Assembly (NCBI GenBank): GCA_017853435.1
Contig: JAFMJN010000001.1
Location: 2,603 to 66,602, forward strand
DNA length: 64,000 nucleotides
Direction of reading: 5' to 3'
Source of the DNA: Planctomycetota bacterium
GTDB lineage: Bacteria > Planctomycetota > GCA-002687715 > CAIWVZ01
Shown: positions 33,857-58,706 of the stretch, one piece after another
Numbering within the stretch: the stretch's first letter is position 1
Layout: the number at the start of each line of letters is the position of its first letter
Notes under the pieces: model-generated
Database searches by the model: none
The model's input: only the letters and a program-made list of their open reading frames with translations
Told to the model about the DNA's origin: nothing
Translations under genes and position numbers: made by a program

Positions 33857-34852
33857 TCAGAGCGTACCGTCGATCCAAAGGTTGTAAAGGCGTTCGATCC
33901 GGAGGTTCCACGCGAGGAATTCGAGCGTGCCGACCGGTTCCGTGACGAGGCCGGCTTCGATTTCCCCCGAAACCTCGACCCAAGAGGCCGTTCGGGGCGG
34001 AATCCGGCGCAAAAGACGCACGATCTCGAATCGACGACGCCCGGAGCCGTCGTCGACCGAGAGGATTCCCGTGCGCTCGCCGGGAGCGAGGGCGAACGCC
34101 CGATCGGCGACCGCCGGTGCCAGGCTTTCACGGGCGACCGGGGGCATCCGCCCCCCCGCCCGAGCGGTTTCGTGGGTCGAATACTTCATCGCCAACGCGG
34201 CCATGTCGGCGCCCGCGTCAAGTTTCGCGGCGACTTCCTTCGCCGTCGCTTCGTCGTCGACGAGGATGATCTGCAATTCGACGCGATCCGCGCGCAACCC
34301 GTCATAGCGGACGACGCGGGAGAGTTTCCATCGCTCCACGAGATCGTCGCGGCGCGCGGCCTTCCAGTCGTCGAGCGACTGCCGATATTCGAGGCGCACG
34401 AAGGATTCCGGCGTCGCCCCTTTTCCGTAGGCCTTGAGGGCCCGCAGCGCGAGATCCTCGACCGCCTTCGCGAGTTGCGCGTCGACCACGTCTTCGGGGA
34501 CCTTCAAGCCGTGCTTGCGGACTTCCTGCTCCACCACTTCCCGAACGACGAGTTGATTCAGCGCGGCGAACGCTTGTTGGCGAAGCGTCGCGCCCGGGGC
34601 CCCGGCGGACTGGGTTCTGAAGAGATGTCGGACGACGTCGTCGCCGGTGAAGACCCGATCTCCCACGCGCGCCACGGGTCGACCGCCGGCCGTCGCGACC
34701 GGAGTCGCCGACGCGGGTGCCGGAGGCGCCGGGAGAACTTCGACGGACGAAGCCCCCGCGACGACGGGCGTCGGCGGCGGCAACGGGCGCTGCGGCGTGC
34801 ATGCCGCAAGCATGCACGCGAGTAGAAGCCCCGAGGGGCGGAATCCCCTCAC
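33857..34852 (-). CDS. Lipoprotein with a parvulin/SurA-like PPIase-type domain (possibly degenerate). Last gene of the pseudopilin operon.
   Basis: GTG at 34852 overlaps the upstream stop (GTGA). Lipobox LLLACMLAAC. RVELQIILVDDEATAKEVAAKLDAGADMAALAMKYS resembles a PpiC-type PPIase domain. Confidence 0.45.
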   Translation of the reverse strand: MRGFRPSGLLLACMLAACTPQRPLPPPTPVVAGASSVEVLPAPPAPASATPVATAGGRPVARVGDRVFTGDDVVRHLFRTQSAGAPGATLRQQAFAALNQLVVREVVEQEVRKHGLKVPEDVVDAQLAKAVEDLALRALKAYGKGATPESFVRLEYRQSLDDWKAARRDDLVERWKLSRVVRYDGLRADRVELQIILVDDEATAKEVAAKLDAGADMAALAMKYSTHETARAGGRMPPVARESLAPAVADRAFALAPGERTGILSVDDGSGRRRFEIVRLLRRIPPRTASWVEVSGEIEAGLVTEPVGTLEFLAWNLRIERLYNLWIDGTL

Positions 34853-36294
34853 TTGTACGAGACGCCGCGATCGCGCATGTGACCTTGGCAACGCGGGCAC
34901 ACCGCGCGAAGGACGTCGCCCTGCGAGCCGGAGAACTGGATGTAGCCCTTCGCGCCGCAGCGTTCGCAGTCTTCCCACTTCTCGCCCGTGACTTCGACCT
35001 TCTTCGCGTTTTCCGCCCAGAACGCCATCATCCACTGCTCGCGCTCGGACGACTGGGAACGGGTCCACCATTCCTCCTTGGTCGGAGGCTTCGGCAGACG
35101 ATCCTGAGGCGGGGCGGCTTGCTGGCCGTTGCGACCCTGCTGACGCGCTTGTTGCGCGTAGGCCTGCGCCATCGCGCGCTGCATCTCCGCTTGGAGTTGC
35201 TGCGCCTGCTTCGCGACGCCGAGGATGACGAACGACCCGGATCCGTACATCGCGAATCGGGTGGCATGCCACCGGCGATCCTCCCACATCTTCTCGACCT
35301 CGTTCTTCGGGTCGAGTTTGTGGCGCGCGGCGAGGTCGGCCACGACTTCCTTGTGGATTTCGGAGCGGAGCTTCCGGCGTGCTTCGTCGAGCGTCAGTTT
35401 CTCGTCGCGGGAGAGCGCGCGGATCTTGTTCTTCAGGACGAGGTCGTATTCGTTCGCGACGATGCGACGGAAGTACTCGTAGCGCTTCTTGGCGAAGGAC
35501 TCTCGATAGGTCGTGATCTCGGCGCGAATACCGGCGGGAACGTCGGGCAGCTTTTCGATCTCGTCGAGGGCGGCGACCGCCTTGTCGAATTGATTCAACA
35601 TCGCCTGTTGGCGGGCGCGGTCGAGTTCGTCGCGGAGCACCTTGTTCTTCGCCAACGCCTCGAGCCGTTCGAGCGTGTTGGCGATCCAATCCTTTTGAAA
35701 CTCGGCGTCGGCGGCCCGAACCTTGAGCAGATGACCGACCGCCTGCTCGTAAAGCCCCAGGGCGTCGGCGAGGCGGGCGAGATCCATGTGGGCGGCGACG
35801 TCGTCGTCGGTCGCTGCGGCTTCGGCTTCGCGCTTCGCGAAGTAGTCGGCCGACTTCCAAATCGCCGTCACGGGCACCTGCGTCTGTTCGATCCCGTCCT
35901 TCACGATGTTGGCTCGCGGGATCACCTGCTTCGTGCCCGCGACCATGACCGACAATTCCTTGTCGTTCTGCGCGTCGATGCGACCGACGACCTCGTCGCC
36001 GGTCTTGAGCGTGATCCGAACGCCCGGCTCGGAGGGAATCCGACTCGATTCATCCTCCTTCAATCCGCGCGCGATCATGATCCGGTTGCGATCCGCCTCC
36101 CGAATCAACGACCACGGAACGAACACCGTGCCGCCGCCGTCGAGGAGCTTGACGCGAAGGCCGCGATCGTTCGCCTCGAGAATGCTGACGTGCAGGTAGC
36201 GTCCGTCGACGAGCACGAGATCCTCGGCGTGGAGCCACGCCGGGCAGAGGACGAGGACGAGAAGGGCGAGTAGACGGCGCATGGCTGTCTCCAT
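34849..36294 (-). CDS. Secreted protein with helical repeats and a C-terminal CxxC...CxxC zinc-ribbon-like motif.
   Basis: Signal peptide MRRLLALLVLVLCPAWLHAED. C-terminus CERCGAKGYIQFSGSQGDVLRAVCPRCQGHM. The ATG overlaps the pseudopilin stop by 1 nt (TAATG). Confidence 0.45.
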   Translation of the reverse strand: METAMRRLLALLVLVLCPAWLHAEDLVLVDGRYLHVSILEANDRGLRVKLLDGGGTVFVPWSLIREADRNRIMIARGLKEDESSRIPSEPGVRITLKTGDEVVGRIDAQNDKELSVMVAGTKQVIPRANIVKDGIEQTQVPVTAIWKSADYFAKREAEAAATDDDVAAHMDLARLADALGLYEQAVGHLLKVRAADAEFQKDWIANTLERLEALAKNKVLRDELDRARQQAMLNQFDKAVAALDEIEKLPDVPAGIRAEITTYRESFAKKRYEYFRRIVANEYDLVLKNKIRALSRDEKLTLDEARRKLRSEIHKEVVADLAARHKLDPKNEVEKMWEDRRWHATRFAMYGSGSFVILGVAKQAQQLQAEMQRAMAQAYAQQARQQGRNGQQAAPPQDRLPKPPTKEEWWTRSQSSEREQWMMAFWAENAKKVEVTGEKWEDCERCGAKGYIQFSGSQGDVLRAVCPRCQGHMRDRGVSYK

Positions 36295-36746
36295 TATTGC
36301 GGCCTTCCGGTGCGACCCCGGAGGATGGCCTGATTATCCGACGGCAGCGCGATCGGAAGGTAACCGAATTCGTAGGTGCGTTCGCCGCCCGGAGCGGGAA
36401 CGACGAGGGTGACGCGGGCCAACACTTCCCGACCGGCATCGTCGCCGGGAACCGACTCGAAGAGGTAACGGCACTTCCAGCGGTTCGACCCGCCGAGACC
36501 GAACTCCCCGTCCCCCCGGCTCTTGCCGCCCTTCGAGCCGCTCGCGACCCGCGCGGCGGCCTCGTTCGAAATACGCTCCACGGCCTCGGGCAAGAGCAAC
36601 GCGGCATCCATGCGTTCCGCCGCCTCCGCTTCGAGATCGAGGGCTCCGGAAAACAGGGCGATGACTCCCGACATCCCGATGACCAAAAGTCCCATGGCCA
36701 CGAGGATTTCGACGAGCGTGAATCCTTTTTCGCCGCGACGGGTCAT
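36294..36746 (-). CDS. Prepilin-type N-terminal cleavage/methylation-domain protein (minor pseudopilin).
   Basis: KGFTLVEILVAMGLLVIGMSGV class III signal motif at the N-terminus. ATG at 36746. 4-nt overlap with the upstream gene. Confidence 0.7.
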   Translation of the reverse strand: MTRRGEKGFTLVEILVAMGLLVIGMSGVIALFSGALDLEAEAAERMDAALLLPEAVERISNEAAARVASGSKGGKSRGDGEFGLGGSNRWKCRYLFESVPGDDAGREVLARVTLVVPAPGGERTYEFGYLPIALPSDNQAILRGRTGRPQ

Positions 36747-37912
36747 CGGGTGGTCTCCGTGTAGTCGGCGCGTCCGGTCGGCGGGCGCACGGTCAGACGG
36801 TAGGTCTTTCCGACATTGACGGCCGTGCCGGGCGCGTGCTCCCCGACCTCCGAACGCCGGCGACCGCGGGCGACGCGCGCACCGCCCGCCACCACGTCGT
36901 CGACCTCGCACCATTCTCCGCCGACGGACACCAAGCGATCGCGGTCGCCGAGACGCGGGAGACGTCCCGGTTCATCGACGACGAGTTCACGTTCGCCGGG
37001 GCGCAACGGACGCACGAGGCGGGCCTCGGGGCGTCCCGGGGTCCCGATGGTCAACGTGATGCCGAGACGTCGAGGGAAGACGTCGTCCCGCTCGTCCGCG
37101 AGCGACGCGGGCCCGCGCGCGAGCGCGAACTGCTCGGGCGGCAAGAGGGCGCGCGTGGAATCCCACGTCTCGCGACCCGAGGCGTTCGGCGGAGCGTCGA
37201 GCAAGGCGGCTTCGTCTTCGATCGACGGAACCGAGTCGCCCGCATAGACCCGGAGGAGCAGCACGCCGGTGACGACGGGCGAGAGATTGCGGCGGACCCA
37301 AGCGGCGTCGGCGCCCGCCGGGGCGTCGTCTCCGAAGAAACCGCCCTGCGCGAGCGCGGGCGTCCGCACGCCGCGCCACAAGGTCAACACGCCCGGAGGA
37401 TCGACGTCCTCCTGCGTCAACGCCCAGCAGACTTCCATGAGGCCCGCCGGGGGCGCGAGTTGCTCGCGCGCGCCGGTCCCCGGATCTCCGCCGGTCCACG
37501 CCGCCTCGGGTTTTCCGATTTCAGGAAGCCCTCGGGCGGAACCGTCGGTCGGCTGGGACTCCGGAGTCGGGACGGGTGCCGGGCGCGCGCCGGCCGAGCG
37601 CAGCACGGGATGCTCCGACTCGCCCTGCGGAAGAGCCCGCACCAAGCGGATCATCGATTGCGGTCCGCCGCCGACGCGCGTCGCCGAGACGACGAAACGC
37701 CCGCCGGCCCCCGTGTGGATATTCGCGAGATCGTCTTCGAGAAGACCGAGCACGGTCGATGCGGACGCGAGATGCTGCCCGCTGCGTTCACCCGCGTGAT
37801 AGAGGTCGAACGAGTTCCTCATCAACTGGACGAGGAGCGTCCCGAGCGTCCCGAGCAGCGCCATCGCGGCCAGCAATTCGACGAGAGAAAGCCCCGAGGT
37901 GCGGCGACTCAT
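36743..37912 (-). CDS. Prepilin-type N-terminal domain protein (large minor pseudopilin, 389 aa).
   Basis: GLSLVELLAAMALLGTLGTLLVQL at the N-terminus. ATG at 37912 overlaps the upstream gene by 4 nt. Confidence 0.6.
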   Translation of the reverse strand: MSRRTSGLSLVELLAAMALLGTLGTLLVQLMRNSFDLYHAGERSGQHLASASTVLGLLEDDLANIHTGAGGRFVVSATRVGGGPQSMIRLVRALPQGESEHPVLRSAGARPAPVPTPESQPTDGSARGLPEIGKPEAAWTGGDPGTGAREQLAPPAGLMEVCWALTQEDVDPPGVLTLWRGVRTPALAQGGFFGDDAPAGADAAWVRRNLSPVVTGVLLLRVYAGDSVPSIEDEAALLDAPPNASGRETWDSTRALLPPEQFALARGPASLADERDDVFPRRLGITLTIGTPGRPEARLVRPLRPGERELVVDEPGRLPRLGDRDRLVSVGGEWCEVDDVVAGGARVARGRRRSEVGEHAPGTAVNVGKTYRLTVRPPTGRADYTETTR

Positions 37913-40900
37913 CGACGTTCCTCCCGGGTCAACGTGCGCGTTTCGTCCATCCAGAGGACTTCGACTTTTTCCAGGATCGGCGACATCTTCCATTCGTGAC
38001 GCGCCAGATTGACCGGATCGAAACACCCGGATTCGAACGAGACTCCGAAGCGCACGTCGAAACCGTCGCCGTGGGCTCGGATGGCGTGCGGCTGTTTCCC
38101 GTCGGCCGCGGGATCGTCGAACCGCATCACGTACGGAGCGACCGCTCCCGGACCCGCCCACGGCGCATCACGGCGGAGACGCACCGTCGCCGTGAGACGC
38201 ACGCTGCGCGAGGGGCTTTGTTCCTCCCAGCGGAATCCGTCGAACCATGCGCCGTCGAGCGGCAACGAGAATCCGTACCACGCGAGTTCCGGACTATCGT
38301 TGTCCCGCGAACCGCGATCCCAATGGCGGAACGGCATTTCGAGGACGATGGCTTCCGCGTCGTGGGCACGGGTGACGGTGCCGAATCGACCGCGGAAGAG
38401 TCCGCCCGCACGCTCGCCCTTTTCGTCGAGGCGCGGCGGCATCGTCAGCGTGTTTTGGTTGCGAGCGGCCGAATAGTGGATGAGTTCTTCGTCCACGAGA
38501 ACGAGCCCGCCGTTCGCGACGAAATCGCCGGTGGAGGCGAGATTCAGGTCCGTGGCGTCCGCCGCGAGCGGCCCCTGAAGCATCGAGACGGGGACGAAGT
38601 CGAGGAAGACCGCGGAGGTTCCCCAACCGTGCTTCTGCGGAGTCGTATTCATGAAGCCGCGGATGCAGCGCAGGAGCGCCGGTCCGCCGCCCTTCCCCGT
38701 CCCGATCTGGCGATACGCGATGATCTCGTCGCCGACCTGGACGAGACCCGCGTCGTTTTCGGGGAGAACCGACTGCAGGGGTTCGTCGGCGAGAACCTTG
38801 GTGCCGTCCGGGAGCGTCGCATAAAGTGGCGGCTGTTGCGCGAAGCCTTCGCGCAGGACCCACACCGTGCGACACAAGGGAATCTCGTCGGTCGACTCGT
38901 CGATTCCCTGAACTTGCGTGACGGACGCGCCTCCCGACGTGTTGCTCGTCGACGACGCGTTGAGTCCCATCGTCGCGTGATCCCAAACGATGAAACGCTC
39001 GTCGGTGGTCGGAGCGATACGGACTTCGTCGAGGCGCCCCGACAGCGGCGACAACGCCCCCGACGTGCCCTGTCCCCCCGCCGCCGCCAACGCACCGTTT
39101 CCGCGGATACGCGGAAGTTCGCCGGAGGGGAACTTGAGGAGACGCGTGTAGGTCTCGCGCGACGGGTCCTCGACGGGAACTTGTCGCACGGTGAATTCCT
39201 GACCGCCGGTCGCGAAAGCCGCGAGCCCGATCGAGGGATTACCGTTGACCGCTTCGGGGATATTCGCCGACCACGCGACGTCGAAACGACGACGAATGCC
39301 GCCCCCCGATGATTCGACGGTGACGGAGTCCCCCCAACCGGGTCCGGGCATCGACGGCACCGGAACCGAAGTCGGCTGCCCCGGCTGCGGATTCGTGACG
39401 GGAATCGTCCCGATACCGGGGAACATCGGGACGCGGAACACCGGGGCGACTTCCTCGTTGGATCCGTGGATCGCGGCACCTGCCGCAAGCAGGTTGTCGT
39501 AGCCGAAGATCGTGGTTCCACCCTGCGAGCGGGACCGCAACGCTTGATTCACGAGCAACGGGGCCGCGGGCGTCGGATTCGTGATCGACTCGAGAAGCCG
39601 CTGCACGGCGTTGTCGAGGCGCGGGCCGTCGGCGTTCACGAGAAGGTTGCGCCCCGTGTCGCGGTAGGTGTACCGGATCCACTCGACCTTGTGCTGCTGA
39701 ATGTCGGAGAAGTTCGGGACCCCGACGGAAACGAACTCGGGGTTGATCCCGTTTTGTCCTTGGCGCGGCTCGAAGTAGCTCGAGACGTTCGTGACTCCGA
39801 TCGAAAGCGGAATGACCCGGCACAGGGTCGGAACGTTCGCCGCCGAGCCTTGACCGGCACGCTTCACCCAGTGCTTTTGACGCGTTTGGGAAATGACCAA
39901 GTTGCCGCCGACCTGCCCCGTGATGGGGTTGTCGGTCGGCGAGGAAAGTCCGAGAAGGGTCGTCCCCGCACGCGACTGGTAGGTCGCGAGTTCGATGACG
40001 GTCGGGGCAAGGCCGCCGAGATTCACGCCGCCGGGCAGCGTCTGACCGGTGATGCTCGAGACGATGAGGACGTAGCCGCCGGTCGGCTGGAAACACGAGA
40101 AATCCGGTACGGATCCCGTCGCGAGCACGAGATCCAGCCGATCGCCGTTCGGCTTCGCGGGGTCGAGGATCTCCATCGTGATCGGAGGAGGTCCGCCCGC
40201 CGGAGCCCCGGGGCCGCCGCCGACGGTCAACGTTTCGACCGCGTTCGACGCGAACGACGCGAGATTGAAGGGGCCCAAATCGGAAGCGAGTTTCCCGCCG
40301 CCCTTCGCGATCGCGACGCCGCCGCGATCCTGCTGCGGGAGGAGCGGCAGCGAATAACCGAACAGTTCGACGCGCTCACCCGCGGCGTGGTCGATCGGGC
40401 TCGTCCCGCGACGCCCGCGGCCGTTGCCGCCTCCGTTCGGGTAGGTGATCACCGAGAACGACGTTCCCGTGCGCTCGAATTCGACGATCTCGCGACCGAC
40501 CCAAGCGGCACCGCGATCAGGCCATCCATCGGCGTCCTCCGTCGTGAACGTCGTATCCGCGCGCGCCATCGAACCGGCGAGACGCGTCGAGTACTTCGCC
40601 TTCCCGCGCTTCATGCCGTCCCACCAAATCGCCACATCGGAGGGTTTCGAGCCCTTGTAGGAAAGGCCCGCGTGGTACCACGTGTCCGACTTCCACACGC
40701 CACCTTCGGGGGTCCATGTGGTTTCGGCGACCTCTTCGATCGTCGCAGCGGGATTCGGCAGCGTGCGATCCGCCACGCGCGCCTTCACGCGACCGTCCGC
40801 GTCGCGCGACAAGGTGATGAACTGATTCGGATCGTCCGACGCCTGCAGGTGGAAGAACGTCGCCTGCGACGGCGCGCCGTCGAAGCGGAACCACCCGTCG

Positions 40901-42963
40901 AGTTTGACGGGATTCGGACCGGTGCGGTCGAGCAAGGTGCCGACCTGCGGACGGCGATTGCCACCGCCGTTGGCGGTGACACCGCCGACCGTGCCCGGGA
41001 GTCGGGTCGCTCCGGCCGCCGCGCCCCCACGCCCGCCGCCGCCGCGCGCACCGGGATTCGATTTCGGAAGTTGATAGGCGCCCTTTTCGAGCATCCACCC
41101 GTCGGGATCGATCTTCTCGACATCGATGTTGTCGGGAACTTGGAACGCCTGGCCGTCGAAATGTTCGATGAATCCGCCGAGGGGTTCGAGCCGCGCGGGC
41201 GAAAGCCGGACGTCGCCCTGTTCCCGATCAGGGAAAACGCTGCGCTTCTCCGCGTTGCCCGAATAGAGCAGCAAACGCGGCACGCGACTCGGAGGAATCT
41301 GGTTTTGAGATTCGAACCTCTCGAGCGGCTTCGGCCACGTCGAGAACCAACGAGCCGTACGGGCCGCGAGGATCGGTTCTTCGAAATCCCACTGCGTATC
41401 GAAGAAGGTGCTGCGACGTCCGGGCGACGCGACGCGCACCTGCTCGGTGACGACGCGACGCGCACGCTCGCGGCCGGAGCGGTCGTTCGCCACCGCACTC
41501 GCCGTGATCGTGTAATGGTCGTAGGACCGGAACGCGAACGGCACCGTGTTCATGAATCCGAACAACTTGTCGCCCGGATCGATCGCGTTGCGGAACACCG
41601 CGAGCATCTGCAATTGATCGTAGATGAGGGGCGCGTTCGTCAGCAGGTTCTGCAGCGTATCGCGCAGTTGTTCGAGATTGCGAACCGGACGCGCCGCGAG
41701 CAACGCGTCCACCACCGCTTCCGCGCCGAGGCGCGTCACGCGACCGGTGGTTCCGTTCGCGCTGCGGCGTCCCCGCGTGAACTGCAAGCCCTCCACGACA
41801 CGAAGAAGGGTATCCTTCGTGGCGGTGTTCACATTCACGGGATGGCGAAGCAACGGCGCCACGAACGTCTGTTCGGAGGCGTAGGCGTTCGCGAGCGGAT
41901 CGCAGAGCGCGAGCACGGAAACGGCACCGCGCGGCTGCGAGTCGAACACCATGTTGTATTCGGTCGTCGCTCCGTTGGTGATTCGTATCACCGTGCCGGG
42001 CGAGATGCCGTCGTTCCCGCGGACCACGATCTTGTAACCGTCGGTCACGTCGGCGTTGGTCGGGTCGGTGTCCTGCGCGAGCGTCGTCGGCGCTCCGAAT
42101 CCGTCCGACGTGGGACGGCCCCCGACGAGCGAAAAGTCGCGTGCGAGTCGATCGACCTCGTTCGCGGTCAATCGGACGTCGGAGTAGAGAGCGACTTCCT
42201 TCATAGAACCCGGCCACGACGATTCGCGGCGCGTCGCGCCGGATTTGCGGGGCGATTTCCAAGGGAGCATCGCGAGTTCCCGCGCGCGGTCGTCGATCAC
42301 GAAGGCGTCGGTCTGATGTTTCCGAGCCTTGCCGCCGCCTGGCAACCCGCGCTGGCATCCGAGGAACTGGTTGCCGGTGGCCTTCGCGTACGCAATGCGC
42401 TCGCCTTCGAGGAAGAGGTATCCGTTCGTCGAAGGGAATCCGGTCGTTTCCTCGACGGTGATGACGCCGTCCGTGTCGGTGATCTCCGTCGTGAGGACGG
42501 TCCTGCCGAGCGACGCCGCGATGAGGAAGGGCGGAGACGTCCATAGATTCGGGGTCGCCTGGGAATCGCGGACCGAGACGTCCCACACGTCGCCGCGCGG
42601 ATCGTTGCGATAGAGGAGCGGAACTCCGTCCGCATCGACCAACGGCTTGCCCTTCGAATCGACGAGGTCGAACGGAATCTTGAACTCTTCCTCCGTGTCC
42701 CAAAGCGGGGTCGACATCGGATCGGTGTCGGGATTGCCGCCGCGCTCGAACTCGCGCTCGGAGGTCGTCCGTTCGAGCGACACCTTCGCATGGTCGAGCA
42801 CGGCGCGCGCCCCGACCTTGACCCGTGCCTCGGAAACGAGGTTCTCGCTCGCGCCGTTGTCGTTCAGGGCGATCGCGAGGAATGGTGCCGCAAGCACCAT
42901 CAGCCCGAGAAGGCACGAGAGGACGAGGACCAAGGCGACGCCGCGTTGCGGTCGACCGTTCAT
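37909..42963 (-). CDS. Giant GspK-like pseudopilin-family protein (1684 aa).
   Basis: ATG at 42963. N-terminus QRGVALVLVLSCLLGLMVLAAPFLAIAL matches the GspK-type (non-methylated) prepilin-like leader. The remaining ~1650 aa is Gly/Thr/Asn/Asp-rich beta-type sequence with polyglycine patches (GARGGGGRGGAAAG) and no recognisable domain. Confidence 0.55.
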   Translation of the reverse strand: MNGRPQRGVALVLVLSCLLGLMVLAAPFLAIALNDNGASENLVSEARVKVGARAVLDHAKVSLERTTSEREFERGGNPDTDPMSTPLWDTEEEFKIPFDLVDSKGKPLVDADGVPLLYRNDPRGDVWDVSVRDSQATPNLWTSPPFLIAASLGRTVLTTEITDTDGVITVEETTGFPSTNGYLFLEGERIAYAKATGNQFLGCQRGLPGGGKARKHQTDAFVIDDRARELAMLPWKSPRKSGATRRESSWPGSMKEVALYSDVRLTANEVDRLARDFSLVGGRPTSDGFGAPTTLAQDTDPTNADVTDGYKIVVRGNDGISPGTVIRITNGATTEYNMVFDSQPRGAVSVLALCDPLANAYASEQTFVAPLLRHPVNVNTATKDTLLRVVEGLQFTRGRRSANGTTGRVTRLGAEAVVDALLAARPVRNLEQLRDTLQNLLTNAPLIYDQLQMLAVFRNAIDPGDKLFGFMNTVPFAFRSYDHYTITASAVANDRSGRERARRVVTEQVRVASPGRRSTFFDTQWDFEEPILAARTARWFSTWPKPLERFESQNQIPPSRVPRLLLYSGNAEKRSVFPDREQGDVRLSPARLEPLGGFIEHFDGQAFQVPDNIDVEKIDPDGWMLEKGAYQLPKSNPGARGGGGRGGAAAGATRLPGTVGGVTANGGGNRRPQVGTLLDRTGPNPVKLDGWFRFDGAPSQATFFHLQASDDPNQFITLSRDADGRVKARVADRTLPNPAATIEEVAETTWTPEGGVWKSDTWYHAGLSYKGSKPSDVAIWWDGMKRGKAKYSTRLAGSMARADTTFTTEDADGWPDRGAAWVGREIVEFERTGTSFSVITYPNGGGNGRGRRGTSPIDHAAGERVELFGYSLPLLPQQDRGGVAIAKGGGKLASDLGPFNLASFASNAVETLTVGGGPGAPAGGPPPITMEILDPAKPNGDRLDLVLATGSVPDFSCFQPTGGYVLIVSSITGQTLPGGVNLGGLAPTVIELATYQSRAGTTLLGLSSPTDNPITGQVGGNLVISQTRQKHWVKRAGQGSAANVPTLCRVIPLSIGVTNVSSYFEPRQGQNGINPEFVSVGVPNFSDIQQHKVEWIRYTYRDTGRNLLVNADGPRLDNAVQRLLESITNPTPAAPLLVNQALRSRSQGGTTIFGYDNLLAAGAAIHGSNEEVAPVFRVPMFPGIGTIPVTNPQPGQPTSVPVPSMPGPGWGDSVTVESSGGGIRRRFDVAWSANIPEAVNGNPSIGLAAFATGGQEFTVRQVPVEDPSRETYTRLLKFPSGELPRIRGNGALAAAGGQGTSGALSPLSGRLDEVRIAPTTDERFIVWDHATMGLNASSTSNTSGGASVTQVQGIDESTDEIPLCRTVWVLREGFAQQPPLYATLPDGTKVLADEPLQSVLPENDAGLVQVGDEIIAYRQIGTGKGGGPALLRCIRGFMNTTPQKHGWGTSAVFLDFVPVSMLQGPLAADATDLNLASTGDFVANGGLVLVDEELIHYSAARNQNTLTMPPRLDEKGERAGGLFRGRFGTVTRAHDAEAIVLEMPFRHWDRGSRDNDSPELAWYGFSLPLDGAWFDGFRWEEQSPSRSVRLTATVRLRRDAPWAGPGAVAPYVMRFDDPAADGKQPHAIRAHGDGFDVRFGVSFESGCFDPVNLARHEWKMSPILEKVEVLWMDETRTLTREERR

Positions 42964-43979
42964 CGGATCACCCCCGCGAGATCGACCGCGACTTCCTCGA
43001 TCCGTTCTTCCTGAACGAGACGCAACCGAACGGGTTCGCCGTGCAGACGACGGTCGAGCCGTCCCTCCTCGTCGAATCGGATCGTCAAGGGGGTTTTGAT
43101 GTCGAAGGCCACGCCGCGCTCGAGGGAGAAGGGTTCGCCGATGCCCACGGTGACGTAACGCACGCCGTCGACGAGTCCCGCGACTCCGCCGCCGATCATG
43201 AACGTGTAGTCGGGAGCCGACGACGCCTCGCCGGCGACGAGCGTTTCCGCTTCCACGACGCCGTGCGCCGTCACGACGAGAGCGACGCCGTCGTAGGCCA
43301 CGCCGACGCGGTTCCACGCGTCGGACTCGACCACTCCCGCCGCGGTTTTCGCGCGACGGACGACGGGTTCGTCGCCGGGGCGATCCGCGAGACGCACCAT
43401 GATCTCGGCCGTCAACGAGAGGTCCTGCTCGAGGAGGAGAGCGAACGCATACGCGTCCGCACCGCTGCCGAGGCGAACGATCTGTCCGGGGCCGGAAGGC
43501 ATGAGATCCGCTTCGAAGATGAATCCCGCCGACGGGTCGAACGTAGGTGCCGACGAAAGCGCGGGACCGAGAATACGCCCGCCTCCGGCCAACTTGGCGG
43601 CCTTGCGGACGGTGCCGCCGTCGACGAGCACCGCGCCCGCGAGCAGCGCCTCGCGAGCATCCCCCATCGGCGTCCGACCGTTGTCCGCCGCGTCGAAGTT
43701 CAAAGTGGCGGCGCGACGCGAGAGCCGCACCTGCAGCGAACCGGGCGCGCCCGTCGCCGGATCACCGGGCATGCAAACGACCGACGAGAGCGCGCGGTCG
43801 GCACGGGCGAGTTGCTTTGCGCGCGTCAAGGCCGCGTGGGTGACGCGGACCGAACCGCCGAGCGCCGCCCCCTGCCCCGCGCGCGAAAGCGCATTCGCGG
43901 AGAAACCCAGAAGCACGGCGAGAATCGTCGTGACGACGAGAACTTCCGCGATGGTGAATCCCGATTGGCGTCGACGCAT
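42960..43979 (-). CDS. Prepilin-type N-terminal domain protein (GspH/I-like minor pseudopilin).
   Basis: SGFTIAEVLVVTTILAVLLG N-terminus. The stop overlaps the start of the giant gene (ATGA). Confidence 0.6.
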   Translation of the reverse strand: MRRRQSGFTIAEVLVVTTILAVLLGFSANALSRAGQGAALGGSVRVTHAALTRAKQLARADRALSSVVCMPGDPATGAPGSLQVRLSRRAATLNFDAADNGRTPMGDAREALLAGAVLVDGGTVRKAAKLAGGGRILGPALSSAPTFDPSAGFIFEADLMPSGPGQIVRLGSGADAYAFALLLEQDLSLTAEIMVRLADRPGDEPVVRRAKTAAGVVESDAWNRVGVAYDGVALVVTAHGVVEAETLVAGEASSAPDYTFMIGGGVAGLVDGVRYVTVGIGEPFSLERGVAFDIKTPLTIRFDEEGRLDRRLHGEPVRLRLVQEERIEEVAVDLAGVIR

Positions 43980-43989: not shown

Positions 43990-44616
43990 CTAGTTCCTGT
44001 CGAAGTTGGTGACGTCGTCTTCGGTGTTGAAGACGCGATCGGGGCCGGCCGAAACGAGTTGGAAAGAGTCCCGACGGAACGCCGTCTTGGTCTTTTGGCT
44101 CTGCCACGGAACGAACTTCAACGTGCCTTCCACGGCGGACACGTTGCGCACGTCGGGATTCGCGTAGTCCGTCGCGTTCACGTAGGCCAACGTCGTGCCC
44201 CACTTGTCGACGAGCGTATACAACTTGCGATCACCGAACCGCGTCAACTGGACCTGGGTCATCCCGGAACCGTCCTCCGACAACGTGACGATCTTCCCGT
44301 CCTCGAAGTCGAAGGCTCCCGAATACGCTTTGGAGTTGAGGCACATGACCAACGCCGAAACGCCGCAATTCTCGAGGCTGTTGACGGCACCGACGCCGGG
44401 AAAATCGCGCAGCGTCGTGGGCGGATAGGTCCCCTCCGAGGATCGGTACGCCTCGAGCGCCGCCGTGAGGTTCATGAGATACGCCTCGGTCGCCTTCCGA
44501 TCCATGTTCCGGAGGATCGGCGGGATCGAGATCATTCCGATGCCCGCGAGCGACGCGATGATGACCATCACGACGAGAAGTTCGACGAGGGTGAAACCCT
44601 TGTTGCCGGAAGTCAT
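43990..44616 (-). CDS. gspG: GspG-like major pseudopilin (type II secretion / type IV pilin-like).
   Basis: MTSGNKGFTLVELLVVMVIIASLAGI followed by a globular domain (208 aa). Confidence 0.7.
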   Translation of the reverse strand: MTSGNKGFTLVELLVVMVIIASLAGIGMISIPPILRNMDRKATEAYLMNLTAALEAYRSSEGTYPPTTLRDFPGVGAVNSLENCGVSALVMCLNSKAYSGAFDFEDGKIVTLSEDGSGMTQVQLTRFGDRKLYTLVDKWGTTLAYVNATDYANPDVRNVSAVEGTLKFVPWQSQKTKTAFRRDSFQLVSAGPDRVFNTEDDVTNFDRN

Positions 44617-44617
44617 C

Positions 44618-47464
44618 CTACTTCTCCTTCGTGGTCACGACGGTCGCGTTGTCCGCGGACCACGAGACCTTTTGATCGAGCGCGGCCTGCGAAAACACCC
44701 AAAGTTCGAAGGTGCGCTTCCAGTTGCGGATGTCCTGCAACACCGCCGAGGCGACGACCTCCTTGTTCGCGAGGATGTCGACGCGACCTTCGCGCGGATC
44801 GGCCCAACGGATTTCGAGACTGACGACGCCGCCCGCGAAGGTCGACGTGGTCGGTTCCCAATCCGTCATTTTCCCCTTCTCGAGGCGGCGCCAAACGAGC
44901 CGACCTTCCGGCGAGAAAGCGACCTGCACGCCCCCCCAAGGGAGGTAGCCCGCCGGACGATCCTCCGGGAATCCCGGCCACTTCTCTCCGCCCGCACGAC
45001 CTTGATTCATCGCGATGAGCGCGATGCCGGCGTGGACGCCCTGTTGTTTCGCCACGTCGAGATCGACTCCGAAGGAGACGAAGCGGTCGCCTTGGCGTTC
45101 CTGCCAAACGATCGTCGGCTTGTCCGACAACGTGCGCTGTTGCCCTTCGAAGACGAGTTTCTGGTCGACGAGGGCCGGAGCGACGCCCGCACCGATTTCC
45201 TTCTTCCACTCGCGGCCGATCTGCGTCCCCGACCGGGAGAAACCGTCGGACCAAAGGAGCTTCGACCGCTGCGCCGTGATGGCGGCGTTGGCGGACGTCG
45301 CCCATGCGGCGAGCGCTCCGCCCTTCGACGCGGTATCGGCGACGCGCTGCATGATCTGCAGAGCCTCGCCTTCGTTCGACTTCTGGTACTGGTGGAACGC
45401 CGTGGCCGCGAGCCACGCGGGATCCTTCAGATCCGCGGCGGACGCCTTCGCGACCAGCGCGTCGGCGTCGGCCATACGACGTCGGCGCACCGCGGTCAGC
45501 AGACGGCGAGGCCCGACGCCGGGGTACCCCGGTTCGACCACGGCGAGCCGATCGTAAAAGCGCGAGGCACGCGCGAGATCGCCCTCGGCGTACGCGGCAT
45601 CACCGAGAGCCGCGAGAAGATCCGGATCGTCGGGCGATGCATCGAGCGCCCCGAGAAGCACCTCGCGAGCCTTCACGGGGTCGCCGCTCATGAGCAACGC
45701 GCGACCCCAAGCGGGTCGCAGGGCGGGGTCCGACGGTCCCGTCTCCGTCGCGGCGGTCGACGCGACGCCGAGCGCGGCATCGTCCTTGCCCGATTGTTCC
45801 TCGACGGCGGCCGACGCGGCCCCGGCGCGCGCGGCGAGAAGCGGATCGAGTTCCGGCACAAGCGCCAACGCCGCTCGCGCACCGCCGACGTCGCCCGTCA
45901 GCAACTTCGCGGCTCCCGAGAGGTGCATCAACGTGCCGCTCGCCGGGAACAACGCCAACGCGGCGGCCGACGCGGTCTTCGCTTCCTCGATCTTGCCGAC
46001 GGCGATCAACGCCGTCACCGACAGCGCCAACGCCCGTTCGTGCGCGCGCTGTCGATCGGCGTCGCCTCCCGCTCCTGCGGTCGTCGCGCGACGCCAACGA
46101 TCCATCACCACGTCGAGTTGGCCTTCGGCGTTCTTCGGATCGCCGACCGCGAGATACGCTTCGGCGAGCAACATGCGAATGCGTTCGGCCCGATCGCCGT
46201 CGGACGACGCGAGCGCGTCACGAAGCGGAGAGATCGCATCGCGAGCCTTGCCGGTACGCAGGAGAGCCTCTCCGAGCGTCGCGGCGGCGACCGCATCGGC
46301 ACCCTTCGCCATCGCTTCGCGCGCCGTCGCCGCGGCTTCGTCGCGGAGACCGAGACGCATCTCGAGGCGCGCCTTGCGAGCGAGCAGCGACGTCGCGCCG
46401 GGGTGCGCCAGGAGTCCGTCGCGCAGGACGCTCATTTCCGCGTCGTAGTCGAACAGCGCTTCACGGCAATCGGAGAGCATGACGAACACGTCGATCGCGC
46501 GTTCACCTTTCTTGCGGAGTCCTTCGAGGAATTCGACGCACAGGGCGTATTCCTTGGCTTCGAAAATCCCGCGAACCGCATCGAGAGCTCCGACGGCGTC
46601 GTCCGACTTCAACGTGCGGCGACGGGTCTCGAAACGGTTGACGGGGTTCTCCGCGAGGACGATTTCCGCGACGACGTCCGCCGTGTAGACCGTGCGTGCG
46701 AGTAGTCTGCCCTTCTTGTCTTCACGGAAGGCGACTTTCAACGCCTTCATCTTCTCGGTGCGTGCGATCTCGGAAAGATCCGTGTTGCCGCGCAGCGCGT
46801 TGTATTCCGCGAGGAGATCCCAACGGTTCTTGTTCCGATCCGCGGCCATGAATTCACCGAGGGCCGACTGTCCGTTCGTGAACGTGATCCGATCGAGCCG
46901 CTTGCGGCGATCCGCTTCCGATTCTTCGGCCCGGCGTTGTTCCTCTTCGCGACGGATGCGGTCCGCCGCCGACATTCGCAAGCGGTCGGCCAGTCCGAGA
47001 GCACCGTCGACGGAGGTCGGGACGACGCCTTCCGCCGTCGGAACCGGAGGCGCATCGGTGCTCGCCGAAGGCACCACGGTCGCTGCAGGCGCGGCGCCGG
47101 TGGCCGTCGGATTGAATGATCGGCGAAGTGCGCGGCCGAGCGTTCCGCCGAGATCGAACGGAAGCACCGGTGCGGGCACCGGCAGTCGCGGCATCACCGG
47201 GGCGGCGAGTTCGAGAGGCGGCAATTCGCGCGTCTCGACGGGAGCCTCGTAGGGATTCCGCCCTTCGGAGGACCACGTCGAAACGTCGGGCTTGATGAAT
47301 CGCCCCGGAGACGGTTTCGCGGCGACTTCATCGGGCGGGGCGCTTCCGCCACCGCCACGGCGCCCCGTCGAGGGCGCTCCCGACGAACCGCCGAGCGCCA
47401 CCAGTCCCCCAAGAAGCGCCAGCGTCAGCACGAACGTGATCGGTTCCTTCTTCATGGACATCAT
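44618..47464 (-). CDS. Secreted TPR-repeat protein (948 aa) with a C-terminal beta-rich domain.
   Basis: Signal peptide (MKKEPITFVLTLALLGGLVALG). Central TPR-like Ala/Leu/Asp-rich repeats. The last ~200 aa are beta-type (WQERQGDRFVSFGVDLD...VSLEIRWADPREGRVDI). 1-nt gap to gspG. Confidence 0.5.
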   Translation of the reverse strand: MMSMKKEPITFVLTLALLGGLVALGGSSGAPSTGRRGGGGSAPPDEVAAKPSPGRFIKPDVSTWSSEGRNPYEAPVETRELPPLELAAPVMPRLPVPAPVLPFDLGGTLGRALRRSFNPTATGAAPAATVVPSASTDAPPVPTAEGVVPTSVDGALGLADRLRMSAADRIRREEEQRRAEESEADRRKRLDRITFTNGQSALGEFMAADRNKNRWDLLAEYNALRGNTDLSEIARTEKMKALKVAFREDKKGRLLARTVYTADVVAEIVLAENPVNRFETRRRTLKSDDAVGALDAVRGIFEAKEYALCVEFLEGLRKKGERAIDVFVMLSDCREALFDYDAEMSVLRDGLLAHPGATSLLARKARLEMRLGLRDEAAATAREAMAKGADAVAAATLGEALLRTGKARDAISPLRDALASSDGDRAERIRMLLAEAYLAVGDPKNAEGQLDVVMDRWRRATTAGAGGDADRQRAHERALALSVTALIAVGKIEEAKTASAAALALFPASGTLMHLSGAAKLLTGDVGGARAALALVPELDPLLAARAGAASAAVEEQSGKDDAALGVASTAATETGPSDPALRPAWGRALLMSGDPVKAREVLLGALDASPDDPDLLAALGDAAYAEGDLARASRFYDRLAVVEPGYPGVGPRRLLTAVRRRRMADADALVAKASAADLKDPAWLAATAFHQYQKSNEGEALQIMQRVADTASKGGALAAWATSANAAITAQRSKLLWSDGFSRSGTQIGREWKKEIGAGVAPALVDQKLVFEGQQRTLSDKPTIVWQERQGDRFVSFGVDLDVAKQQGVHAGIALIAMNQGRAGGEKWPGFPEDRPAGYLPWGGVQVAFSPEGRLVWRRLEKGKMTDWEPTTSTFAGGVVSLEIRWADPREGRVDILANKEVVASAVLQDIRNWKRTFELWVFSQAALDQKVSWSADNATVVTTKEK

Positions 47465-47470: not shown

Positions 47471-48316
47471 TCAGCGCAGCGCGCCTTCGGGGTTGACGTC
47501 GAGGGCGCGGAGATCGAAGCGGGCTTCCACGCGACGCCGGTCGTTCGGATCGGCACCCTTCCGTTCCTTCACGGATCCGTCGGGCGGGAAATCCAAACTG
47601 GTGACCACGGCTTTTTCGACCGCGAGCCAACGGCCGGCGAGCGCTTCGCTGCCGGTGTTGTCCTGCGCGAGCGCGCGCACCACGATCGACACGGCGCGCG
47701 GGTGGCCGACGACGGACAGCGACACCTTCGTCCCGGCGACGAACGGGGTCTTCGCGCCCGGGCTCTTCTTTTCCGGCTTGTCGATTTCGATGCGTTCGAC
47801 GCGAGCGATCCCGCCCTCCACTTCGCGTTCCGCCGCGAGAGCGATCACGAGGACCTGTTCGACGACGTCGAGTCCGCGCATCCAATGTTCTTGATCGGAT
47901 CGCTGGGACGGGAAGGCGTCGGGCAGGCCGAGTCGTTGGTCGACGTCGATATTGCGGACGGCACAGGCTTCGAGCGTCCCGTTTCGGAAGCGTTCGAGTT
48001 GCGCGTTGTAGTAAAGATCGGAATCGGCGACGTCGGATGCGATGCGCCATTCCTTCGCCGGAACGCGGGCGACGTTCGTACGCAGACCGTCGTAGCCCGC
48101 TTCAAGCGTGCCGCGGTTCTCGACCGCCTTGCGGAGGTCGAATCCGGCGGGCAGCGCCTGCTTCTGGTCCGCCTTCGCACGACCGATCTTCGCGCGCGCG
48201 GCTTGAATACGGCCGTCGAACGCTCCGTCGATCAAGAGGACGCCGACGAGCAACAAGAGCCCCCCCGCGACGACCGACATGATGAACTTGCGGTGTTCCT
48301 GCCAAATGTCGCCCAT
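47471..48316 (-). CDS. Bitopic inner-membrane protein, GspM/PilO-like assembly component (tentative).
   Basis: Single N-terminal TM (IMSVVAGGLLLLVGVLLI) followed by a helical then alpha/beta periplasmic domain. Sits immediately downstream of the GspL-like gene. Confidence 0.4.
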   Translation of the reverse strand: MGDIWQEHRKFIMSVVAGGLLLLVGVLLIDGAFDGRIQAARAKIGRAKADQKQALPAGFDLRKAVENRGTLEAGYDGLRTNVARVPAKEWRIASDVADSDLYYNAQLERFRNGTLEACAVRNIDVDQRLGLPDAFPSQRSDQEHWMRGLDVVEQVLVIALAAEREVEGGIARVERIEIDKPEKKSPGAKTPFVAGTKVSLSVVGHPRAVSIVVRALAQDNTGSEALAGRWLAVEKAVVTSLDFPPDGSVKERKGADPNDRRRVEARFDLRALDVNPEGALR

Positions 48317-48319: not shown

Positions 48320-49990
48320 TCACGTCCCTCCGGTCAAGTCGACGCGCACCGTGTAGGAAAGCACGCCGCCGCCTCGAGCCGCGCCGCCTTTTTGGTCGGC
48401 GATCGACACGTCCGAGCCCGGAAGCGCTTTTTGAAGGCCGAGGACGAAATCCTGCAGAGCCTTCTCGGGCTGCCCCGCCTGCGACGTCGCCTGCCCCGCG
48501 ACGTAGGCGACGGTGCGCAGCACACGCGGCGACTTCGGGTCCTTCGGGTCGGTGGGGCGCGCCTCGCGCTGAACCGTGACCGAGCCGACCCATGCGCCTT
48601 CCGGCAGCGCCTCTTGAACGACCTTTTGAATCCGTGCGAGTCCTTCGCCGGGTTCCGTCCATCCGGCGAGGGCGGCCATCCTTTGGTTGATGTCGCGGAT
48701 ACGTTCCTGTTCGGTATCCCACGTCTTGCGGTCGCGCTTCGCCTTATCGGCCGCGCGGACTTCCGCCGCGGCGTCCTTTTCGAGTCGTCCGGCTTCGGCC
48801 ATGCCGTCCCAAAGGCGGAACCCCAGGAATCCTGCGGCGGCGACGCCCGAGAGGATCATCCACAAAGTTCGTTCACGGAAACTTCGTCGCGTCCGCGTCG
48901 CCGAAGTGACCACGTCGAGTTTGAACGCGGCCGGATCGCCCGACGTGATCATGAGCCCCAAAGCCACCGCGAACGCGCCCGGGTCTTCGAGGAACGTCTT
49001 CGCGTCCTCGGCGGGTAACGCGGAGGTGTCGAGCGCGTTTTCCGGTTGGAACCGAACGACGGGGCAGCGGAACGCGGCGGACAGGTAGTCGGAGAGACCT
49101 CGGAGGCGGGCACCTCCGCCCGAAAGCAGGATGCGCGAGGGTTCGAGGTCGCGAATCTTCGTCTGCGCCCGAATGAACGCGAGACTGGACTGAATCATGG
49201 CGGTTAGTTGGCCGACCGGGCCGACCAACGCGTTCGCCACTTTCTCTTCCTTGCCCGATGCGTACGCCGCGCGGCCCTTCGGGCTGACGTTGCCCGACTG
49301 GTGTTTCAGCGCCTCGGCATCCGCCGTTCCGAGTCCGAACCCGGACGCGACGGCCTCGGTCAATGCACGACCTCCGCCCGCCAAGTTGCGTGCGAACAGC
49401 AACTCGCCGTCCTTCACCAAAGCGATTTCGAGGTTGCGGTCTCCGATATCGACGAGAAGCGCGGCTTCGCCGTCACGCGGGTCACCCGTCGCGAGGAAGG
49501 CGTTCGCCAAGGCGACCGACGACGGAGTCCCGCAAGACGGGTCGCCGACCGTGGCGGCCGCGTCATGGCGGGCCGAGAGGAAGCCCTCCTTGCAGACGGC
49601 CACCATGACGTTTTCTTCTCCCGCCGACGCGTTCGGCAGTTGAAGGAGATTCCAGTCGCTCGCGAGCGCGTCTCCGACGGTCTGCGACATGTCGCGGACC
49701 TCGACGTCCATAAGGAATCGAAGGCGCCACAGCGGAACCTTCGGAACGGTCGTGTAACGGATGATCAGCGAAGGGCCGGAGATGCCGAAACGCACACCGG
49801 GCACGCGTCCCTTCGGGCCGAGCTCCGCCGCGAGTGTTCCGACCGCTGCGAGGGTCGCCGATTCCCCGTCCCCCGACGAATCGACCGAAGCCTGAAGCAC
49901 ACGCTGCAATTTCCAACGCGTCCCCGCACGCTCGGCGACGACCATTCGGACATGGTTGGATCCGAGATCGAGTCCTGCGAAAACCTTCAC
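48320..49990 (-). CDS. GspL-like protein (or PilM-PilN fusion). Cytoplasmic actin-like domain, TM segment and periplasmic domain.
   Basis: MKVFAGLDLGSNHVRMVVAE...LLVDIGDRNLEIALVKDGELLFARNL actin-like ATPase-fold motifs. TM segment TLWMILSGVAAAGFLGFRLW. Coiled-coil periplasmic tail. Confidence 0.6.
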   Translation of the reverse strand: MKVFAGLDLGSNHVRMVVAERAGTRWKLQRVLQASVDSSGDGESATLAAVGTLAAELGPKGRVPGVRFGISGPSLIIRYTTVPKVPLWRLRFLMDVEVRDMSQTVGDALASDWNLLQLPNASAGEENVMVAVCKEGFLSARHDAAATVGDPSCGTPSSVALANAFLATGDPRDGEAALLVDIGDRNLEIALVKDGELLFARNLAGGGRALTEAVASGFGLGTADAEALKHQSGNVSPKGRAAYASGKEEKVANALVGPVGQLTAMIQSSLAFIRAQTKIRDLEPSRILLSGGGARLRGLSDYLSAAFRCPVVRFQPENALDTSALPAEDAKTFLEDPGAFAVALGLMITSGDPAAFKLDVVTSATRTRRSFRERTLWMILSGVAAAGFLGFRLWDGMAEAGRLEKDAAAEVRAADKAKRDRKTWDTEQERIRDINQRMAALAGWTEPGEGLARIQKVVQEALPEGAWVGSVTVQREARPTDPKDPKSPRVLRTVAYVAGQATSQAGQPEKALQDFVLGLQKALPGSDVSIADQKGGAARGGGVLSYTVRVDLTGGT

Positions 49991-53502: not shown

Positions 53503-53973
53503 CTACTGCGGTGGTGGCTGAGATCCCCGAGCCAATGGTCGAAACTGCTCACCGTTCCCAATTTGAAATCGATAGCCGACGCACACACCATCCGAAATGT
53601 GCAGACGAAAATACGAGGGGAGTAGATCGCTAGTAGGTCCTGACTTGGACGGAATGAGAACCCCGCCCATACGGTACTCAAGAATCGTAATCGGTGGTGC
53701 GGCTGACTCCCGATCAGGGGGGCCAAGGTTGTCATTGATCCACGCAGCGGTCCTTTGCAATACCCCTTCTCGTTCAACCAAGTCACCAACCATATAGGGA
53801 CGGCGATTAACGGGGCTCAGCTCATCACTGCCGCGCATCCTCCAAATATCTGGGGCAAATGGAATGAGTCGCGCAAAATCGTAGTGAGCATCATCCGCTA
53901 CCGCGAACGCGCCTAACCCCCAACCTAAGAGACCGGCAAATGCAACGGCAACAGACCATTTGACTTGAATCAT
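53503..53973 (-). CDS. Secreted hypothetical protein in the Rhs island (accessory or immunity candidate).
   Basis: The ATG at 53973 overlaps the stop of the upstream gene (ATGA). Signal peptide MIQVKWSVAVAFAGLLGWGLGAFAVA. AT-rich relative to the flanks. Confidence 0.4.
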   Translation of the reverse strand: MIQVKWSVAVAFAGLLGWGLGAFAVADDAHYDFARLIPFAPDIWRMRGSDELSPVNRRPYMVGDLVEREGVLQRTAAWINDNLGPPDRESAAPPITILEYRMGGVLIPSKSGPTSDLLPSYFRLHISDGVCVGYRFQIGNGEQFRPLARGSQPPPQ

Positions 53974-58693: not shown

Positions 58694-58706
58694 CGCACGG
58701 GCCTCA

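Follow-up and report, generated by a model that had tools for sequence, protein, structure and literature searches.

The giant reading frame and its relatives

We analysed a 64,000-nucleotide stretch of DNA from a Planctomycetota bacterium (GenBank assembly GCA_017853435.1, contig JAFMJN010000001.1, positions 2,603 to 66,602), referred to here as the window, in which a tightly packed minus-strand operon includes a gene for a giant GspK-like protein. The gene lies at 37909-42963 on the minus strand, as do all other features described below unless noted. It comprises 1,684 codons plus the stop, as read from the open reading frame (ORF) and its translation; a first-pass annotation had given these coordinates and this length correctly, and the strand is added here. 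The translated protein starts MNGRPQRGVALVLVLSCLLGLMVLAAPFL, and the N-terminal stretch that had been quoted as diagnostic, QRGVALVLVLSCLLGLMVLAAPFL, corresponds to residues 6-29. With 1,684 amino acids (aa) compared with 327 in E. coli K-12 GspK, the protein is 5.1 times longer, in agreement with the roughly fivefold excess over canonical GspK noted earlier. The reported start/stop overlaps with the genes on either side are two 4-base ATGA junctions: the ATG of the giant gene overlaps the stop of the upstream 339-aa gene, and the downstream 389-aa gene begins with an ATG that overlaps the giant gene's own stop. The protein had also been described as rich in Gly, Asn, Thr and Asp with polyglycine tracts. 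Gly is indeed high (10.9%), and Thr (7.5%) and Asp (6.3%) are moderate, but Asn accounts for just 4.0% of residues, and the polyglycine description was overstated for a protein with one GGGG and seven GGG tracts.

The mechanical ORF extends beyond the ATG at 42963 to a GTG at 43317, adding 118 codons that are Arg-rich and lie inside the upstream 339-aa gene. This N-terminal extension had no counterpart in any homologue or in an independent gene call by the Joint Genome Institute (JGI). Because it is absent from both and overlaps the upstream gene, we take the ATG at 42963 as the start.

DNA of high GC content yields long spurious ORFs, and the locus provides an example. An antisense ORF of 1,026 aa at 39466-42546 (plus strand) has a GC content by codon position of 0.81/0.52/0.64, the mirror image of that of the giant gene (0.66/0.51/0.80), and a product with 19.5% Arg; we rejected it as a real gene and consider it a mirror-frame artefact of high-GC coding DNA. 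The giant frame might likewise have been spurious, or the result of a frameshift or an assembly error that joined two genes, a concern raised in the first-pass annotation. This concern was addressed without reads. An identical 1,684-aa product was called on an independent JGI metagenome contig (Ga0673005_0000507), more than 150 independent assemblies contain the same single frame of ~1,600-1,900 aa, and both halves of the protein gave confident AlphaFold2 (AF2) folds. The pattern of GC by codon position, with 0.80 at the third position, is of the coding type for a genome of 66% GC. All 18 relatives retrieved in a word-indexed search of 5.8 billion proteins (1,593-1,830 aa, 25-94% identity) align end to end with the giant protein in the multiple alignment, with invariant residues from V14 to L1664. 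The identical JGI product, the full-length relatives and the invariant residues along the whole protein together exclude a frameshift or assembly join; the probability that we assign to an artefact is negligible, and the giant ORF is a genuine, single coding frame.

The family is widespread in Planctomycetota, with full-length members of 1,590-1,950 aa, and has so far gone undescribed. In their best local BLASTP alignments, 16 of the 18 relatives cover 98-100% of the query, and the two most distant (P0017 and P0018) cover 53%. A scan of GTDB, with one genome per species, identified at least 156 genomic stretches that encode relatives. Among the best 80, for which details were listed, most span the whole query, all come from metagenome-assembled genomes, nearly all are labelled as Planctomycetota or its lineages, and the closest, at 94%, is 'LaPlata_bin-2350'. 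An exhaustive hidden Markov model (HMM) search of 1.84 billion cluster representatives with the N-terminal 530 positions of the family returned 394 matches at E<=1e-30, or about 400 clusters at 50% identity. The best 150 of these are almost all 1,300-1,950 aa long, and the few short matches stop or start within the profile, as expected of fragments at contig ends. A second word-indexed search, this time starting from the alignment, added nothing to the family. In the literature on pseudopilins and GspK in Planctomycetota and on the Verru_Chthon cassette, we found no description of the giant family.

A GspK-like module with a long extension

The first 530 residues (41374-42963) form a GspK-like module: a pilin fold with an alpha-domain. 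Residues 1-64 (42772-42963) comprise a short basic leader, a putative prepilin-peptidase site after Gly8 and a hydrophobic alpha-1 helix, assigned from the sequence, its conservation, hhalign, NCBIfam and AF2. The leader reads MNGRPQRG, followed across the putative cleavage site by VALVLVLSCLLGLMVLAAPFL, with Gly at -1 and Val at +1; G8, V14, L18, L21, A25 and P27 are conserved through leader and helix. Position +5 is occupied by Leu13 and has no Glu, and the family consensus here is VAL(I/V)(L/M). The Pfam N_methyl/IPR012902 signature is absent from the giant protein, and one relative matched it with an E-value of 0.23; this absence is expected because GspK-type leaders lack the GFxxxE motif. 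An hhalign comparison of the N-terminal family profile with E. coli K-12 GspK aligned residues 4-33 with 40% identity and 35% probability, a match to the 30-residue helix alone obtained with a single sequence, which makes a weak template. The NCBIfam GspK model matched 11 of 19 relatives over its first ~105 positions, with a best score of 51 bits (1.3e-13) that is below the cut-off.

The predicted structure extends this similarity well beyond the helix. In the N-terminal AF2 model, in which alpha-1 spans residues 6-64, the whole globular fold of GspK is kept and the alpha-domain is inserted in the beta-sheet as in PDB entry 3CI0. The best PDB fold match of the model was GspK; the top matches were to GspK and XcpX of type II secretion systems (T2SS) and not to PilX or PilK of type IV pili. 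The structure prediction suggested in the first-pass annotation thus bore out a GspK-like fold at the N-terminus. The alpha-domain (residues ~373-465, 41569-41847) is predicted to contain helices at 383-461 and opens with a conserved HPVNVNTA, in which P375, N377, N379 and A381 are invariant; positions 1-21 of Pfam T2SSK (PF03934) matched this motif in 4 of the 19 relatives, with at most 22 bits against a threshold of 24.2. Two small beta-barrels are inserted in the module. The first (residues ~150-225, 42289-42516) bears the motif GYLFLEGERIAY...CQRG...H and the second occupies residues ~290-372 (41848-42096). These barrels account for the other high fold scores, which were to six-stranded barrels of phage tailspike N-termini, tail-tip proteins and domain 2 of EF-Tu. 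The protein is GspK-like by fold, leader and context, and is not a database-defined GspK; its link to GspK comes from the predicted structure and from scans of its relatives.

The module is followed by a conserved segment (residues 531-630, 41074-41373) in which P544, P557, G583, V585, G597, H601, D603 and G622 are invariant, and then by a Gly-rich linker (633-680) that varies in length and sequence among relatives; pLDDT (the per-residue confidence of AF2) and the alignment delimit this region as residues 531-683 (40915-41373). When the N-terminal 640 residues were modelled alone, residues 528-640 had a pLDDT below 50. The conserved segment probably packs against the C-terminal module or partner pilins, and splitting the protein for modelling may have cut a domain.

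Next comes a domain with the LamG/pentraxin (concanavalin A-like lectin) fold (residues ~684-812, 40528-40914); among PDB sequences, the whole-family profile produced a single marginal LamG-like match. A chain of beta-rich domains then runs from residue ~813 to ~1560 (38284-40527), interrupted by a short helical segment at ~1113-1153 and including further small-barrel copies at 818-868, 1406-1455 and 1485-1545. Their shared motif is G-x-[LIV]-x-[LIV]-x-x-E-x-[LIV]-x-[YF]…RG..GT…H, which occurs at residues 181, 818, 1406 and 1485. This motif matched Pfam Rcc01698_C, below threshold, in 12 of the 19 relatives, and PHROG tail, baseplate-wedge and virion-structural families over 55-85 residues with E-values of 1e-10 to 5e-9. 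The C-terminal ~1,000 residues had no global match in PDB or BFVD, and no C-terminal beta-propeller of the PilY1 type is present.

The protein ends in a beta-sandwich (residues ~1561-1684, 37912-38283) and a conserved 12-residue tail, defined by invariant residues and the alignment. W1658, K1659 and L1664 are invariant near the C-terminus. In nearly all of about 190 aligned members, a WK.tP.L…V.Y motif is followed by this tail (37912-37950), which has a fixed length and the consensus d.TRvL.rEe.R; the last 8 residues had a pLDDT below 50 when the C-terminal part was modelled alone.

The operon around the giant gene

The operon reads, in order, FHA-FHA, PilM-like, 281-aa, TPR, GspG-like, 339-aa, giant gene, 389-aa, 150-aa and 481-aa. 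At its head is a membrane protein with two FHA domains (49987-52446; Pfam FHA 141 bits, Yop-YscD_cpl 107 bits) that is syntenic in all close relatives, and its FHA pair hints at phospho-threonine-dependent control of a filament machine. The next product, a 556-aa PilM-like protein (48320-49990), scored 52 bits with Pfam PilM_2, above the cut-off, and 124 bits with the NCBIfam Amuc_1101 family, below the cut-off; its C-terminal membrane and periplasmic part gives it a PilM-PilN or GspL-like topology. A 281-aa membrane protein (47471-48316) occupies the PilO/GspM position by synteny; it matched no family, and its orthologue at one related locus (L003) had a faint match to Amuc_1100. A syntenic 948-aa protein (44618-47464) contains Pfam TPR_14 and TPR_19 repeats.

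The major pseudopilin candidate is a 208-aa GspG-like protein (43990-44616; N_methyl 31 bits; TIGR01710 GspG E 7e-10, below the cut-off). E. coli GspG aligned over residues 1-138 with its orthologues in 33 related loci, with E-values down to 3e-15. The GspG-like subunit is longer than its 145-aa E. coli counterpart by virtue of a ~60-residue internal insertion, and has a GspG-like terminal motif, SAGPDRVFNTEDDVTNF.

Three further pseudopilin genes flank the giant gene. The 339-aa product upstream (42960-43979) is GspH-like by position (Pfam N_methyl 28.7 bits, with weak GspH and Verru_Chthon D matches) and carries a LamG-like domain: its profile matched LamG-type domains with an E-value of 9e-4, and the L003 orthologue carries Pfam Laminin_G_3. 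Downstream, a 389-aa product that is provisionally J-like (36743-37912) scored 18.5 bits with N_methyl, below the cut-off, has a conserved helix with E12 at the Glu+5-type position, and is syntenic in all close relatives; a 150-aa product that is provisionally I/PilV-like (36294-36746) has a conserved GFTLxE and scored 30.9 bits with N_methyl, and 30.9 and 19 bits with PilV and GspI, both below the cut-offs. The neighbours of the giant protein had been called ordinary pseudopilins. They are not: their lengths, 339 and 389 aa, are roughly double those of E. coli GspH (169 aa) and GspJ (195 aa), and the 339-aa one has a lectin-type domain of its own. Profiles of the 339-, 389- and 150-aa proteins, compared with PDB, recognized just the N-terminal helices, plus LamG in one, and the H, I and J labels are provisional for this reason. 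The last conserved gene of the cluster (34849-36294) encodes a 481-aa secreted protein that belongs to no significant family and is syntenic in five related loci (L001-L004 and L008); its C-terminal part bears a CxxC…CxxC motif, and a signal peptide is present.

In related genomes, where the first-pass annotation had suggested looking for homologues of comparable length beside gspG genes, the same operon order surrounds homologues down to 27% identity, and several of these loci also share flanking genes for ScpB, RNase P, YidD, NFACT, NDK and ATP synthase. The shared housekeeping genes point to vertical inheritance rather than a mobile element. The most divergent full-length relative, P0017 (1,830 aa; loci L005 and L006), has another neighbourhood, with extracytoplasmic function (ECF) sigma factors and EF-P and no Pfam-recognised pseudopilin gene nearby, and P0018 (L007) follows two N_methyl pseudopilin genes.

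Elsewhere in the window, positions 1-33000 hold housekeeping genes for TatC, Phe-, Thr- and Asp-tRNA synthetases, F1 ATP synthase subunits and ScpB, which fits a chromosomal core region. On the other side of the operon are two large Rhs/YD-repeat genes (54824-58834 and 59536-63978, both minus strand; Pfam RHS_repeat 115 and 159 bits, respectively), both with a DUF4595-like segment. The GC content of this stretch is 0.56-0.63, compared with about 0.66, and two unannotated small ORFs (53503-53973 and 53970-54614) lie downstream of the first Rhs gene; the stretch is possibly a toxin/immunity island. In L004 and L008, a gene for an FHA-GAF-sigma54 activator, and not the Rhs genes, is found upstream of the FHA gene.

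A proposed tip pseudopilin with an adhesin-like module, weighed against its rivals

We consider it probable, with moderate confidence, that the product of the giant gene is the apical minor pseudopilin (GspK/PilX position) of a planctomycete type IV filament machine, to which a large adhesin-like module has been fused. Starting from the fold, leader and gene context observed here, its processing, tip location and ligand binding would follow by analogy with GspIJK, PilVWX-PilY1 and modular pilins. Prepilin peptidase would remove the short leader after Gly8, leaving the hydrophobic alpha-1 helix to anchor the protein in the inner membrane. Because the protein combines a GspK fold with the absence of Glu+5, as in other GspK-position subunits, which reside at the apex (PMC13533445), it would nucleate and cap the filament together with the two downstream (I/J) pseudopilins and the upstream H-like one. 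The 208-aa GspG-like subunit is predicted to polymerise beneath this tip complex, on a platform that would include the PilM/N-like, PilO-like, TPR and FHA proteins of the operon, as homology to the tip complexes GspIJK and PilVWX suggests.

The ~1,150 residues past the GspK module would ride on the tip, with the Gly-rich linker providing flexibility ahead of the LamG lectin domain and the beta-domain chain, which is partly built from the small phage-tail-type barrels. To judge by the types of domain present, a glycan or a surface is the most likely ligand that they may bind. The role of extended adhesin or cargo-presenting tip proposed in the first-pass annotation is plausible, and is strengthened by the LamG/pentraxin-type lectin domain in the extension. 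Since the H-position pseudopilin has a LamG-like domain of its own, the filament would have a pair of lectin-type domains close to its tip. More tentatively, the last ~10 residues might fold back into the pilin sheet as a licensing beta-strand. This suggestion comes from the fixed, conserved tail and from the strand-addition model, in which GspK and CpaL contribute the C-terminal strand in cis, and PilY1 does so in trans (PMC13533445).

Several observations weigh against this interpretation. The NCBIfam T2SS_GspK model (NF037980) matched the giant protein over residues 6-70 with 18.5 bits against a cut-off of 130, Pfam yielded no match to it, and its scores fall short of all curated GspK thresholds. 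The I and J assignments of its neighbours come from order and size alone. The 64-kb window encodes neither a secretin nor an assembly ATPase, a platform protein or a prepilin peptidase, and within ±10 kb of the gene just 1 of 87 related loci has such a machinery gene, for a GspE-like ATPase. A tip of ~180 kDa would need either to pass through a secretin or to remain in the periplasm. The level of conservation varies little along the protein, with a peak at residues 1401-1550 and no hypervariable domain, which is unusual for an adhesin. For the suggested return of the tail to the pilin sheet, an underpowered mean-field direct coupling analysis (gap-filtered, Meff 113) recovered known hairpin contacts, and pairs between the C-terminal block and the pilin domain were no commoner than in control blocks, a result that speaks neither for nor against such a contact.

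Of the rival readings, the one with most weight is that the protein is the GspK of a true T2SS. It would then belong to a periplasmic pseudopilus, and the extension would push or select exoproteins, as a piston head or as a platform for recognizing cargo, possibly within the enlarged planctomycetal periplasm, rather than act as a surface adhesin. The preference of the fold search for T2SS GspK and XcpX over PilX and PilK, the T2SSK-type motif of the alpha-domain and a major subunit that is a full-length GspG homologue all speak for this reading. Set against them are a platform gene that scores as PilM (Pfam PilM_2, Amuc_1101 family) and not as GspL or GspM, and the lack of a linked GspC, D, E or F gene in 86 of the 87 loci. 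An appendage of ~1,150 residues that bears a lectin is also hard to fit under a secretin gate, and LamG on a second pilin suggests ligand capture, not pushing. We judge a true T2SS GspK unlikely. Next in weight is a GspK-derived protein of the envelope that acts independently of any filament, in which an uncleaved N-terminal helix would be the membrane anchor and the beta-rich body would serve as a scaffold or lectin, in the periplasm or at the cell surface. The failure to reach curated pilin and GspK HMM thresholds, the lack of a linked assembly ATPase and the uniform conservation expected of a structural protein would all suit such a protein. It would not explain why the Gly at -1 and the helix pattern show the conservation seen in processed pseudopilins, why the entire GspK globular fold and not the helix alone is retained, or why the gene is translationally coupled to pseudopilin genes within a conserved operon that has GspG-like and PilM-like members; this alternative is therefore rather improbable in our view.

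A phage origin falls far behind these two rivals, as does an artefactual frame. The small barrels resemble those of phage proteins, and the giant protein might on this account be a phage-derived tail or host-specificity protein, a prophage or tailocin remnant that is pilin-like at its N-terminus alone. The likeness is, however, confined to barrels of 55-90 residues: Foldseek matches of the C-terminal model to BFVD had global TM-scores of at most 0.13 despite low E-values, and 2.9 million viral contigs held 2 matches, to residues 1477-1544 alone. No phage genes lie nearby, and synteny with the ScpB, RNase P, NFACT, NDK and ATP synthase genes extends to distant relatives. With likeness at the scale of single barrels and a housekeeping neighbourhood, we rejected a prophage origin and consider a phage-derived protein very improbable.

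The proposed tip pseudopilin would work like GspK at its base and, taken whole, like PilX plus PilY1 or like CpaL. Relative to GspK and XcpX (PDB 3CI0 chain K and 5VTM chain X), it differs in its length, in the two barrels inserted in the module and the ~1,150 residues appended to it, in its HMM scores below the cut-offs and in its lack of linkage to gspC/D/E/F; its GspK-like context consists of the four flanking genes with prepilin motifs, one of them the GspG homologue, with the identities of H, I and J provisional. The type IVa tip, PilX/PilK with PilY1/PilC, is a functional analogy, in which an apical subunit without Glu+5 bears a tip adhesin of more than 1,000 aa. The conserved extreme C-terminus of the giant protein recalls the C-terminal assembly strand of PilY1 (PMC13533445), whereas the PilY1-type propeller is lacking. 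In CpaL of the Caulobacter Tad (type IVc) system, a minor-pilin-like N-terminal domain is fused to an adhesin-like middle, and the pilin domain is completed by a strand from the C-terminus of CpaL itself (PMC13533445); with about 600 aa, CpaL is far shorter, and the likeness drawn here to the giant protein is one of described architecture. By analogy, one giant polypeptide would do the job of PilX plus PilY1, or that of CpaL in Tad pili.

The giant protein belongs to the broad class of modular pilins, as a variant that differs in size, signature and number of domains. Modular type IV pilins, among them S. sanguinis PilB (with vWA) and PilC (with a ConA-like lectin), CofB of enterotoxigenic E. 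coli and Thermus ComZ, consist of a pilin module with grafted ligand-binding modules, including ConA-like lectins, that are thought to be displayed at the tip for adhesion; the lectin of PilC is paralleled by the LamG/ConA-superfamily lectin of the giant protein (PMC8179133, PMC9934059). Here a GspK-type pilin module is combined with a LamG lectin and phage-tail-type barrels. At about twice the size of the largest modular pilin (860 aa) in the 2021 InterPro survey, and with many domains instead of one or two, the family was invisible to that survey because it has no N_methyl/IPR012902 match (PMC8179133). Verru_Chthon cassette protein A (TIGR02600, 1,296 positions) represents another catalogued, uncharacterised giant family of the PVC superphylum, and is accompanied by the pilin-like cassette proteins B-D. 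Positions 1-62 of TIGR02600 matched the N-terminal helix of 8 of the 19 relatives with 11-13 bits against a cut-off of 332, the giant protein itself had no match to it, and the neighbouring pilins had weak matches to cassette proteins B and D. Because the scores are far below the cut-off and involve the N-terminal helix alone, we treat the giant family as separate from TIGR02600. With the host-specificity proteins of phage tails and gene transfer agents (Rcc01698/Megatron, tip attachment protein J), the giant protein has 55-90-residue barrels in common, and neither global likeness nor a phage or gene transfer agent gene context.

Type IV filaments are usually thought to gain functions through a docked giant adhesin (PilY1/PilC) or through a single module of modest size grafted on a pilin. 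The giant family would represent a third and extreme route, in which the apical GspK-type subunit has itself grown to 1,600-1,900 residues with lectin domains and phage-tail-type barrels. It roughly doubles the size range known for pilin-like proteins, as a conserved, vertically inherited family across many Planctomycetota that was missed by Pfam, NCBIfam and the InterPro-based survey of modular pilins, and hundreds of proteins annotated as hypothetical could be given new names. It also offers a natural test of the licensing model for the C-terminal strand, across a loop of 1,150 residues.

For the biology of Planctomycetota, the family puts forward a concrete candidate gene behind fibres and surface interactions that are poorly understood. 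Dextran-gold has been observed on planctomycetal pili-like fibres, which bind polysaccharide of high molecular weight ahead of its appearance in the enlarged periplasm (PMC5394234). As a long shot, the giant proteins may be the glycan-capturing tips of these dextran-binding fibres: the giant protein would then be a multi-domain lectin 'harpoon' of ~180 kDa at the end of a type IV filament that retracts and reels glycans to the cell, with a second LamG domain on the H-like pilin. If so, the family would provide a molecular handle on planctomycetal macromolecule uptake.

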